Virus record (IMG/VR): IMGVR_UViG_2609459848_000003
Source of the DNA: a virus
Lineage: Duplodnaviria > Heunggongvirae > Uroviricota > Caudoviricetes
DNA: 28,840 nucleotides
Strand: one strand, 5' to 3'
The notes below the pieces were generated by a model, which saw only the letters and a list, made by a program, of their open reading frames with translations, had not been told where the DNA came from and did not search any database. Positions 10,556 through 12,189 of this stretch are shown in pieces. Made by a program: the position numbers and the translations under genes. Each line of letters opens with the position of its first letter. The first letter of the stretch is position 1.

Positions 10556-10635
10556 TGAAACCTCGTAGAATCTAGTTTGTTAACAGATTCTACGAGTTGT
10601 CATTTGTGACAGTATGCTCGCAATCGTAGTGATTA

Positions 10636-11175
10636 CTACCACCAACTGCTAGCTTTCTTCTCTCTAGCTTTTCCTTCGCTTTGCAGTAAATCTTTACTTC
10701 CTGTAGAAATATTTCTATTTGCATCAGCCTCAGACTGAATTACATCTGTCTTAGCTGCTCTCTCCTTCAACTCCTGCTCTATAAAATCGTTTTCTCGCTG
10801 GACACGAGCCGCTTTTGCTTGCAGTTCGAGTTTCATGCTTTCGAGTTGCAGCTTGCGAAGCTCATCCTCATAAGCTTGATCTCGCTTCTTGTCATTTGCT
10901 AGCTCGGCTTCTCGTTTCGCTCTACGTTCATTTTCTGCAGCAACACGCTGTTTTTCGCGTGCAGCAGCGGCAGATGCTGCTTTTTCTCTTCTAATACGTT
11001 CAGCTTGTGCTTGTTGGCGAATAAGTTCTTTTCTGGCATCCTCAGCTTGCTGCTCTTTAGCTCGCCCTTCATTTTCCGCTTGAGCAATAGCAGCAATTTG
11101 ACTTTGCAACGAGTTAGCCAAGGCAGTGCCTACACTAAACGTAGAAAAGATTAGAAATAAAATAATTTTATTCAT
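10636..11175 (-). CDS. Secreted charged coiled-coil protein (179 aa)
   Basis: N-terminal signal peptide MNKIILFLIFSTFSVGTALA, then a long E/R/K/A/Q-rich predicted helix (TolA domain II-like composition). Stop-to-start distance from the lipoprotein gene is 3 bp. Confidence 0.6.
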   Translation of the reverse strand: MNKIILFLIFSTFSVGTALANSLQSQIAAIAQAENEGRAKEQQAEDARKELIRQQAQAERIRREKAASAAAAREKQRVAAENERRAKREAELANDKKRDQAYEDELRKLQLESMKLELQAKAARVQRENDFIEQELKERAAKTDVIQSEADANRNISTGSKDLLQSEGKAREKKASSWW

Positions 11176-11178
11176 AAA

Positions 11179-11700
11179 TTATTTCTTTTCTGGACAAGTA
11201 GCATTTGGCTGAATTCGAGTTTCATTATCTTTAGTTGAAATAAGCACAGCAAGCCCCGTTGTAAACTGGCATGCTTTACCAACTTGAGTTGAAGTGAACA
11301 CCTTAGTTCCTTCTTTATAAGTCAGTGAAACACCTTCAACAATTGTTTTATCACTAACCAAAGAACCAGCCGCTGCACCAAGAGCCGCACCACCAGTACC
11401 GCCAGCTACAGCACCCAGTGTCGATGTGCCTTTAACATTATAACCGGCAACGCCCCCAGCAACAGCTCCCAGTACCGCACCAAATGTCTGTGCCGCTTCT
11501 TTATTAGCTTTATTATCAACTTTCACTTTAGCTGGAAGCACAGAGATAATATTGACTGTCTTTGTTTCCTGCTTCGAATTCAATTGAGCGGTATCATAAA
11601 CATCGGCAGCATAATCAGCACCGCTAGATTGACACCCAGAAAGAAGAATTGCAGATACAACAAGAGCGCATAAAGTATACTTTTTAGACATAAGAATCAT
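11179..11700 (-). CDS. SlyB/Pcp-family outer-membrane lipoprotein with glycine zipper (173 aa)
   Basis: Lipobox LLSGC after a hydrophobic signal; ADVYDTAQL motif and glycine zipper GAVLGAVAGGVAGYNVKGTSTLGAVAGGTGGAALGAAAG resemble E. coli SlyB as I recall it; downstream GVSLTYKEGTKVF resembles the SlyB beta region. Confidence 0.65.
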   Translation of the reverse strand: MILMSKKYTLCALVVSAILLSGCQSSGADYAADVYDTAQLNSKQETKTVNIISVLPAKVKVDNKANKEAAQTFGAVLGAVAGGVAGYNVKGTSTLGAVAGGTGGAALGAAAGSLVSDKTIVEGVSLTYKEGTKVFTSTQVGKACQFTTGLAVLISTKDNETRIQPNATCPEKK

Positions 11701-11981
11701 CCCAGAAAAACAAAAACCGGCGAGAAGTTACCACGAGAACGGAAAGTAAACAAGAATACTCCCATTGACTTATATCAATTAATCAACTTTTTATAAGCTA
11801 TCCCTAACTTATTGTGTATAGCTGAAAAGTCAGAGACAAGTTCACCATCTGCATTATTTCTTAAGTTAATAGTTTATTGCTAACTTAATTTATGCATCGA
11901 CTATTGATATCCATCTTAAAGTTACAATATCCCTCTGCATTATTTTTCATCACAAATAATATATCTATTGCACGACACTAA

Positions 11982-11998
11982 TCTGCTCTAATAAATTT
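11982..11998. promoter_or_regulatory. C1 repressor operator-like site (Op51-like)
   Basis: TCTGCTCTAATAAATTT matches the remembered P1 C1 operator consensus ATTGCTCTAATAAATTT at 15 of 17 positions; lies in the AT-rich divergent promoter region upstream of c4-icd-ant. Confidence 0.55.
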
Positions 11999-12189
11999 GT
12001 ATTTTTAAGTCGCGAATGCTATCTTTTCGCATCATATTGACCTTTTAATCGTTCAGGCTTATAGTTTCGCCGTCGTAGCAAATTCTGCGACCGGGTTTAG
12101 CAGCCTGAATGATTGTGCGGACAGCCGCAGATATCCGATATTGCGGTATTTTTGTGTCCGTAAAACCGCGTTACGCCCAAATTATGGTG

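Follow-up and report, generated by a model that had tools for sequence, protein, structure and literature searches.

What does a P1-like phage-plasmid carry where P1 itself keeps its sim genes, and what could the occupant do for the element that houses it? To address this question, we examined IMG/VR virus record IMGVR_UViG_2609459848_000003, a Caudoviricetes sequence of 28,840 nucleotides, which we call the window at its full length. A first-pass annotation made from the sequence had singled out positions 10561–12060 as an AT-rich envelope module of two tightly linked minus-strand genes lying between the tail genes and the c4-icd-ant region. Both open reading frames (ORFs) are confirmed: they lie 3 nt apart on the minus strand, at 11179–11700 (173 amino acids [aa]) and 10636–11175 (179 aa). 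The first encodes a SlyB-type outer-membrane lipoprotein similar to YfgH of Escherichia coli (upf50.5 in phage P7), as judged from its lipobox, its identity to YfgH, a SlyB profile, and Foldseek. The second encodes a secreted, long-helix DUF5384 protein similar to YfgI (upf50.0 in P7), as judged from Pfam, its identity to YfgI, and an AlphaFold2 model. Together they form a two-gene envelope operon, acquired horizontally and carried in the variable sim slot as a sharply bounded cassette.

Three-way alignments of the window, P1, and P7 set the edges of this cassette. Homology to P1 ends after window position 10607 and restarts at 11984, delimiting a 1376-bp accessory segment (10608–11983) that takes the place of the P1 simABC segment. 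On the left, this segment directly adjoins the −22 box of the late promoter LPsit, and on the right the core of a C1 repressor operator; pmgC/tubA lies on one side and c4-icd-ant on the other. In P1, the same interval, from pmgC/LPsit to Oc4, holds simC-simB-simA, so the identification of the slot with simABC in the first-pass annotation was correct. Eight low-GC variable regions are known in P1-like phage-plasmids, and the sim region is among them (PMC9603915).

The window itself belongs to a P1-like phage-plasmid of the P7 type. At the nucleotide level, a 1.8-kb stretch around the cassette is 99.2% identical to phage P7, 99.2–99.9% identical to RCS47, SJ46, JL22, and phi456, and 100% identical to one E. 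coli plasmid. These P7-type phage records carry the same cassette in the same slot, with proteins that are 100% identical (for the lipoprotein, in P7, RCS47, and SJ46), and they show no substantive difference from the window. In P7 the order is tubA (pmgC) with LPsit, upf50.0/upf50.5, Op(c4), and then c4-icd-ant, and the P7 record (AF503408) describes upf50.5 as an “outer membrane lipoprotein of unknown function” and upf50.0 as a “membrane protein of unknown function.” The earlier suggestion that the module was undescribed therefore does not hold: the genes are annotated in P7, have PHROGs of their own, and are homologous to yfgH-yfgI, of which YfgH has been characterized. What is added here is the identity of the pair as a phage-plasmid-borne yfgHI/SlyB-type module, together with its exact boundaries and the exposure of several database mislabels. 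A literature search found no paper discussing the phage-borne cassette.

Base composition also sets the locus apart. Its AT richness relative to the flanks, initially judged by eye, is borne out by computation: the GC content of 10561–12060 is 0.399 against a window mean of 0.483 (SD 0.029 for 1500-bp windows), approximately the lowest of any 1500-bp window in the 28.8 kb. The cassette proper (10608–11983) has a GC content of 0.404, compared with 0.483 for the whole window. At third codon positions, GC content (GC3) is 0.24 and 0.31 in the two genes vs. 0.47–0.53 in pmgC, tub, and ant1, and the lowest-GC 300-bp windows of the entire sequence fall at 11670–12050, just upstream of the genes.

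Where do these genes come from? When 5426 complete E. coli genomes were searched at the DNA level with low stringency, a chromosomal match (∼69% nucleotide identity, annotated as yfgI and yfgH) was found in 5420, at a locus ordered guaA, yfgI, yfgH, yfgG. The lipoprotein is 67% identical to YfgH over 171 aa without gaps (E = 6e-73), and the DUF5384 protein is 47% identical to YfgI. The gene order is the same, and the lengths nearly so (172/179 aa on the chromosome, 173/179 aa in the cassette). Given this agreement in identity, order, and length, the cassette represents a mobile and diverged version of a two-gene operon of the E. coli core genome. The two versions further have in common the lipobox, the glycine zipper, two conserved C-terminal cysteines, a DUF5384 partner ending in SWW or SWF, and an AT-rich upstream region. 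They differ in context, as the cassette is borne by a phage-plasmid and flanked by a late promoter and a C1 operator, and in the upstream region, most of which is different. They also differ in composition: the cassette GC3 values of 0.24/0.31 compare with 0.43/0.49 in the chromosomal copy and ∼0.5 in the phage neighbors, which argues for a foreign origin. Across this allele and a second phage-plasmid allele, described below, GC3 is 0.21–0.34, which points to a donor more AT-rich than E. coli.

The lipoprotein and its DUF5384 partner form a conserved pair. Their genes are immediate neighbors on the same strand, with the lipoprotein gene first, in the E. coli chromosome, the second P1-like allele, a Vibrio parahaemolyticus plasmid, the Mergibacter septicus chromosome, and a metagenomic contig. 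Two homologue searches suggest that further genomes, including several from Xenorhabdus, also have both genes.

The first-pass annotation had read the lipoprotein as a SlyB-type protein with a lipobox and a glycine zipper, and this assignment is upheld. Read from the sequence, the lipoprotein signal has a positive, Lys-rich n-region, a hydrophobic core, and the lipobox LLSG/C, whose cysteine is Cys23. The +2 residue is Gln, i.e., there is no inner-membrane retention signal and the protein is compatible with Lol export. A Gly/Ala zipper spans approximately residues 74–115, and 35 columns are invariant among 25 homologues, including Cys23, Cys144, and Cys169. A single-sequence search against the Protein Data Bank (PDB) returned nothing significant, whereas a profile built from the 25 family members matched SlyB (7OJF/7OJG) at E = 7.2e-10, aligning residues 9–162 with 6–153. 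In the Pfam check proposed at first pass, the zipper families stay below their curated cut-offs on the lipoprotein itself (PF05433, 18.2 vs. 24.2 bits; PF13488, 12.4 vs. 25 bits), and it is the family profile that finds SlyB. Many close homologues do have precomputed PF13441 or PF05433 matches.

An AlphaFold2 model of the lipoprotein, built from the 25-sequence alignment, is poor (predicted local distance difference test [pLDDT] 56). In order, it predicts a strand, a two-helix hairpin (residues 64–89 and 94–113), and a beta domain. Its best Foldseek match is SlyB 7OJF (E = 1e-6, template modeling [TM] score 0.56, with the query at pLDDT 56), and TraT comes next, weakly. The lipoprotein is SlyB-like: SlyB, too, combines a beta-strand, a two-helix glycine-zipper hairpin, and a C-terminal beta domain. 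However, the two are only ∼25% identical, and SlyB has no DUF5384 partner. For the chromosomal protein, YfgH and SlyB do not cross-complement, and their suppressors differ—clsA for YfgH and mla for SlyB (bioRxiv 10.64898/2025.12.22.696046).

The annotated start of the lipoprotein gene, the ATG at 11700 (MILMSKK…), leaves no room for a Shine–Dalgarno sequence. A second ATG at 11691 (M4, MSKK…) has an SD-like GGGA ∼9 nt upstream, its equivalent is the annotated start of the second allele, and a start there fits the 170–172 aa length of most homologues. Translation probably begins at this second ATG, which would give a protein of 170 aa.

What is the partner? The first-pass annotation had described a signal-peptide protein with a long charged helix resembling TolA domain II. 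The signal peptide and the helix stand. The former is of type I (MNKIILFLIFSTFSVGTALA, cleaved before NS), and its 20-aa cleavage agrees with the site given by the P7 annotators; E, D, R, and K make up a fraction of 0.40–0.42 of the helix. The likeness to TolA, by contrast, falls away. No TolA family was matched at E ≤ 1 in Pfam or NCBIfam, and the protein is a clear member of DUF5384 (PF17358; E = 3e-43, 147.8 bits vs. a cut-off of 25). Its architecture also differs from that of TolA, with a cleavable signal peptide instead of an N-terminal inner-membrane anchor and no TolA C-terminal domain, leaving the charged helix as the only resemblance.

AlphaFold2, run on a 72-sequence alignment, predicts one unbroken helix from residue 4 to residue 178 (pLDDT 87.6), and on this model the mature DUF5384 protein would be ∼23 nm long. 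Such a length is on the order of the width of the periplasm. Across the 72 homologues only the C-terminal half (residues 96–179) is conserved (DKKRDQxYEDELR…TDVIQSEADANRN…SWW/SWF), and the N-terminal half is a variable helix rich in E, R, K, A, and Q. Heptad analysis gives a moderate coiled-coil signal at approximately residues 91–125. At the very C terminus (window 10636–10650) lies a conserved aromatic signature, which takes the form SWW-COOH in phage alleles; chromosomal DUF5384 proteins finish with SWF(N/K).

What might a second copy of this operon do? The best guide is the chromosomal protein, which a December 2025 preprint identifies as an outer-membrane lipoprotein (bioRxiv 10.64898/2025.12.22.696046). 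According to the same preprint, yfgH is expressed only under outer-membrane stress, being strongly induced on depletion of LpxC, LptD, or BamA, and mild or leaky overexpression rescues those depletions, LptD and BamA among them. Deletion of yfgH leads to sensitivity to sodium dodecyl sulfate and ethylenediaminetetraacetic acid, raised uptake of N-phenyl-1-naphthylamine, and loss of outer-membrane proteins, and it is suppressed by clsA mutations; YfgH also limits blebbing and outer-membrane loss. In Salmonella Typhi, the yfgHI orthologues, srgI-srgL, are regulated by SdiA (PMC11619404).

We favor, with roughly even confidence, the interpretation that the cassette is an accessory (“moron”) unit expressed in the lysogen, where it would strengthen the outer membrane as reported for chromosomal YfgH. 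Three observations lead us to prefer outer-membrane fortification: mild extra YfgH is protective in E. coli; chromosomal yfgH is off without stress; and the module is also found on non-phage plasmids, in one case beside a phosphoethanolamine transferase. Taking the gene identities, the export of both proteins, the SlyB-type architecture, the pairing, the boundaries, and the purifying selection described below as the starting point, we infer the remaining course as follows. Leftward transcription of the cassette in the lysogen would start in its own AT-rich upstream region and would not depend on the late promoter; the lack of a late-promoter box upstream of the cassette supports this step. The lipoprotein would be lipidated at Cys23 and routed by Lol to the outer membrane, where its glycine-zipper hairpin may insert in the membrane and oligomerize into SlyB-like rings. 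These rings could corral lipids and outer-membrane proteins and thereby stabilize the membrane under stress, in line with what is reported for chromosomal YfgH. The secreted DUF5384 partner, a ∼23-nm helix that is probably coiled-coil in part, would act alongside the lipoprotein in the periplasm. Overall, the cell would receive an additional supply of an outer-membrane stabilizer under different regulation, from which the lysogen, and through it the plasmid-prophage, may benefit under bile, detergent, chelator, or peptide stress.

Several points weigh against this interpretation. E. coli hosts already own yfgHI, and an advantage of a second, diverged copy is an assumption. Ring formation by YfgH is an AlphaFold3 prediction, for which the authors themselves note that strong biochemical evidence of oligomers is lacking (bioRxiv 10.64898/2025.12.22.696046), and our own low-confidence monomer model (pLDDT 56) lends the lipoprotein architecture weak support. 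That preprint nowhere mentions the partner, yfgI, and the sole reports on yfgI that we encountered, as cited in PMC11619404, concern the susceptibility of mutants to nalidixic acid and DNA damage. A consensus scan of the cassette for promoters and terminators gave a count not above shuffled expectation, and no convincing promoter was found. Finally, the slot normally houses an exclusion determinant, which favors an alternative to which we return below.

How widespread is the cassette, and has it been maintained? In PLSDB, the flanks of the 1.8-kb query were matched in 628 plasmids and at least 80% of the query in 168, so that the number of P1-like plasmids in this database that carry the cassette is at least 168. 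The P1 sim segment was found in 298 PLSDB plasmids, nearly complete in 137; it and the cassette are the two main alternatives for the slot in this database. Approximately 3% of the complete E. coli genomes (182/5426) carry the cassette. A second allele, with 84% (lipoprotein) and 80% (DUF5384 protein) aa identity, occurs in ∼20 further P1-like plasmids, and in the one examined, pLR-25_1 (NZ_AP027501.1, IncY), its position is again the sim slot. Comparison of the two phage-plasmid alleles gives dN/dS values of 0.06 and 0.04, and synonymous sites are close to saturated. Thus, both genes have long been maintained as functional proteins.

These numbers bear on the possibility that the cassette is neutral or near-neutral hitchhiking cargo, that is, a yfgHI copy from an AT-rich enterobacterium that recombined into a permissive low-GC region and is silenced in E. 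coli, for example by H-NS. The known low-GC variability of the sim region (PMC9603915), an upstream GC content of ∼0.32 that is typical of H-NS targets, and a scan that demonstrated no promoter would all suit such cargo. Yet at least 168 plasmids and 11 deposited phage records carry the cassette intact and 99–100% conserved, an anciently diverged allele under dN/dS of 0.04–0.06 occupies the same slot, and the edges are precisely kept, flush with two functional backbone sites. We consider hitchhiking quite improbable on this evidence.

Of the deposited phages, only P1-like elements carry the module. TL-2011b (JQ011317.1) appeared to be a second phage lineage with the module, and was rejected as such: positions 41360–44784 of its record hold a pdeF fragment, yfgG, yfgH, and yfgI, the E. 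coli flank, beside phage lysis genes. Therefore, that prophage adjoins yfgI, and the record includes host DNA.

Outside phages, the module is also found on non-phage plasmids, namely the ColE1-like pYLMB10c and a Vibrio plasmid, which fits a general envelope benefit to the host. pYLMB10c (NZ_CP073991.1) is a 7.5-kb mobilizable plasmid. In its cargo (1602–4892), a gene that resembles phosphoethanolamine transferases and is very rich in AT precedes a yfgH-like gene, whose product is 75% identical to the window lipoprotein, and a yfgI-like ORF truncated at 127 aa. This cargo is an envelope-modifying set on a small plasmid.

Could the cassette instead stand in for Sim? According to references cited in PMC8546580, the exported protein Sim brings about superinfection exclusion. 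A cassette that replaces Sim functionally would act at the envelope, its rings and long helix masking or immobilizing outer-membrane components, or stiffening the envelope, so that incoming P1-like or other phages, or partners in conjugation, would not get in or pass on their DNA; we regard this as the leading alternative, though less likely than not. In its favor, the cassette occupies the exact sim position. It also resembles SimABC in orientation, low GC content, the presence of signal-peptide proteins, and its junction with the C1 operator Oc4. However, there is no sequence or family relationship between the two systems, which consist of two and three genes, respectively: no P1 DNA homology extends across the cassette, and the Sim proteins have different Pfam matches or none.

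The slot itself behaves like a hotspot for defense or accessory genes. In pLR-25_1, an extra 419-aa DUF559/REase_MTES_1575-like gene (3889–5148) lies between the DUF5384 gene and pmgC, which suggests that the slot gathers accessory or defense genes and speaks for an exclusion role. Against that role, no PADLOC model matches either cassette protein at E ≤ 1, and the same module is a core housekeeping operon that also travels on non-phage plasmids. Moreover, the receptor of P1 is lipopolysaccharide rather than a protein around which a SlyB-like ring could close.

TraT provides a precedent for an exclusion role. Like the cassette lipoprotein, TraT (PDB 9FS5, 9E2V, and 9FSM) is an outer-membrane lipoprotein with a Gly/Ala-rich helical membrane hairpin, and hhalign relates the two families with 94.9% probability, locally, over 73 columns covering the zipper and the following strand. 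The Pfam TraT match on the lipoprotein (PF05818) is sub-threshold (23.1 vs. 31 bits). TraT belongs to a chromosomal-type lipoprotein family that plasmids and other mobile elements have repeatedly co-opted for surface exclusion, and it forms decameric outer-membrane rings (PMC11733297). It is also larger than the cassette lipoprotein, with a surface-exposed beta-sandwich ring, and the Foldseek TM scores between them are 0.2–0.26. Divergence of the phage alleles from the host copy is strong, which counts in favor of exclusion, but selection between the two phage alleles is strongly purifying, with no sign of diversifying selection.

A more specific proposal, which we hold to be rather unlikely, is that P1-like phage-plasmids co-opted a diverged copy of the host yfgHI operon as an envelope-level exclusion system interchangeable with Sim. 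Rings coupled to a ∼23-nm, periplasm-spanning helix would then block phage DNA delivery or conjugative entry, in parallel with the co-option of chromosomal TraT by F-like plasmids. If true, this would be the first function for DUF5384/YfgI. Superinfection exclusion and outer-membrane stabilization, the two roles put forward at first pass, still appear to us to be the right pair of hypotheses.

How is the cassette placed with respect to the transcription signals of its neighbors? The late promoter LPsit of the pmgC/tub/sit operon belongs to the backbone (10587–10607, minus strand; transferred from the P7 and P1 annotations). Its −10 element, TAGAAT, lies at 10587–10592, and its −22 box, ACAAATGAC, at 10599–10607, where it abuts the left cassette edge. 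A third alternative is a function in the lytic cycle, in which the module would hold the outer membrane until spanin-mediated lysis, tuning its timing or protecting against lysis from without. The cassette is oriented like the late tail operon, of which it is the immediate upstream neighbor, and the limits that YfgH sets on blebbing and outer-membrane loss (bioRxiv 10.64898/2025.12.22.696046) would suit such a task. Nevertheless, no second Lpa-type late-promoter box was found upstream of the cassette, LPsit being the sole such box in the region and lying downstream of it, and a strong hairpin separates the cassette from pmgC. P1 does without the module, which is therefore dispensable for lytic growth. 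A lytic role is, in our judgment, highly improbable.

The hairpin corresponds to an inverted repeat at 10562–10596, with perfect 12-bp arms (10562–10573 and 10585–10596) and an 11-nt spacer; the arms extend to 18 nt at 89% identity. The RNA fold of 10545–10640 on the minus strand has an energy of −31 kcal/mol (z = −5.5). The first-pass annotation rightly called the palindrome perfect over 12 bp but took it for a boundary of the module; it is backbone, kept in P1 and P7 with arms of 11 bp, and it overlaps the LPsit −10 element and the pmgC Shine–Dalgarno sequence. A transcript initiated at LPsit would hold the 3′ arm only, whereas read-through from the cassette would hold both arms and bury the pmgC ribosome-binding site. 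On the strength of this difference, the hairpin probably insulates the late tail operon from expression of the slot in the lysogen.

On the other side of the genes, the cassette-specific upstream region (11701–11983, minus strand; GC ∼0.32) is presumed to bear the promoter and contains short blocks in common with the second phage allele and with the region upstream of chromosomal yfgH. An AT-rich upstream region of ∼360 bp, specific to the module, had been proposed. The 360 bp are indeed AT-rich (GC 0.319), but they are composite: 283 bp belong to the cassette and ∼77 bp to the immI backbone, the latter part holding the C1 operator and the c4 promoters. The operator, Op(c4)/Oc4 (11984–11998, plus strand), is annotated in P1 and P7; its core, TGCTCTAATAAATTT, is identical in both and abuts the right cassette edge. 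A weak sigma-70-like candidate, TAGATA-17-AATAAT (9/12 matches, from the consensus scan only), lies at 11939–11967 on the minus strand, 15 bp from the operator, in a geometry like that of the predicted PsimA beside Oc4 in P1. By-eye inspection of the upstream region revealed no convincing sigma-E motif.

What would an active cassette mean for its hosts? In that event, the ∼3% of complete E. coli genomes noted above would hold a second, mobile, and differently regulated yfgHI set. Such a set could alter the robustness of the outer membrane to bile, detergents, or membrane-active antibiotics, or susceptibility to phages and conjugation, in hosts of a group of elements that also spreads extended-spectrum β-lactamase and mcr genes. 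The locus also offers a natural experiment for YfgI/DUF5384, as the two phage alleles, whose divergence is ancient, could be swapped with each other and with the host copy to ask whether the lipoprotein and its partner work as a specific pair.

Several public records label these genes differently. The lipoprotein is called a “DNA methyltransferase” in PHROG 1277 and in RefSeq phage records NC_050152 (P7), NC_042128 (RCS47), NC_031129 (SJ46), and NC_019445 (TL-2011b), and phi456 (OR339795) labels the two genes “minor tail protein” and “tail tip protein.” The methyltransferase and tail labels are misannotations that have been propagated; the products are a SlyB-like lipoprotein and a DUF5384 protein.

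Beyond the operator lies the immI context of the slot (12059–12265, plus strand), with the c4 a1/b1 targets at 12059–12111 and the C4 antisense RNA at 12180–12265. Two Rfam families, RF03163 (54.6 bits) and RF01695 (69.6 bits), match the immI c4 targets and the C4 RNA above their gathering scores. A sub-threshold match to the Rfam isrK family (43.7 bits vs. a gathering score of 50; E = 1.4e-7) at 12072–12153 overlaps the c4 a1/b1 leader.

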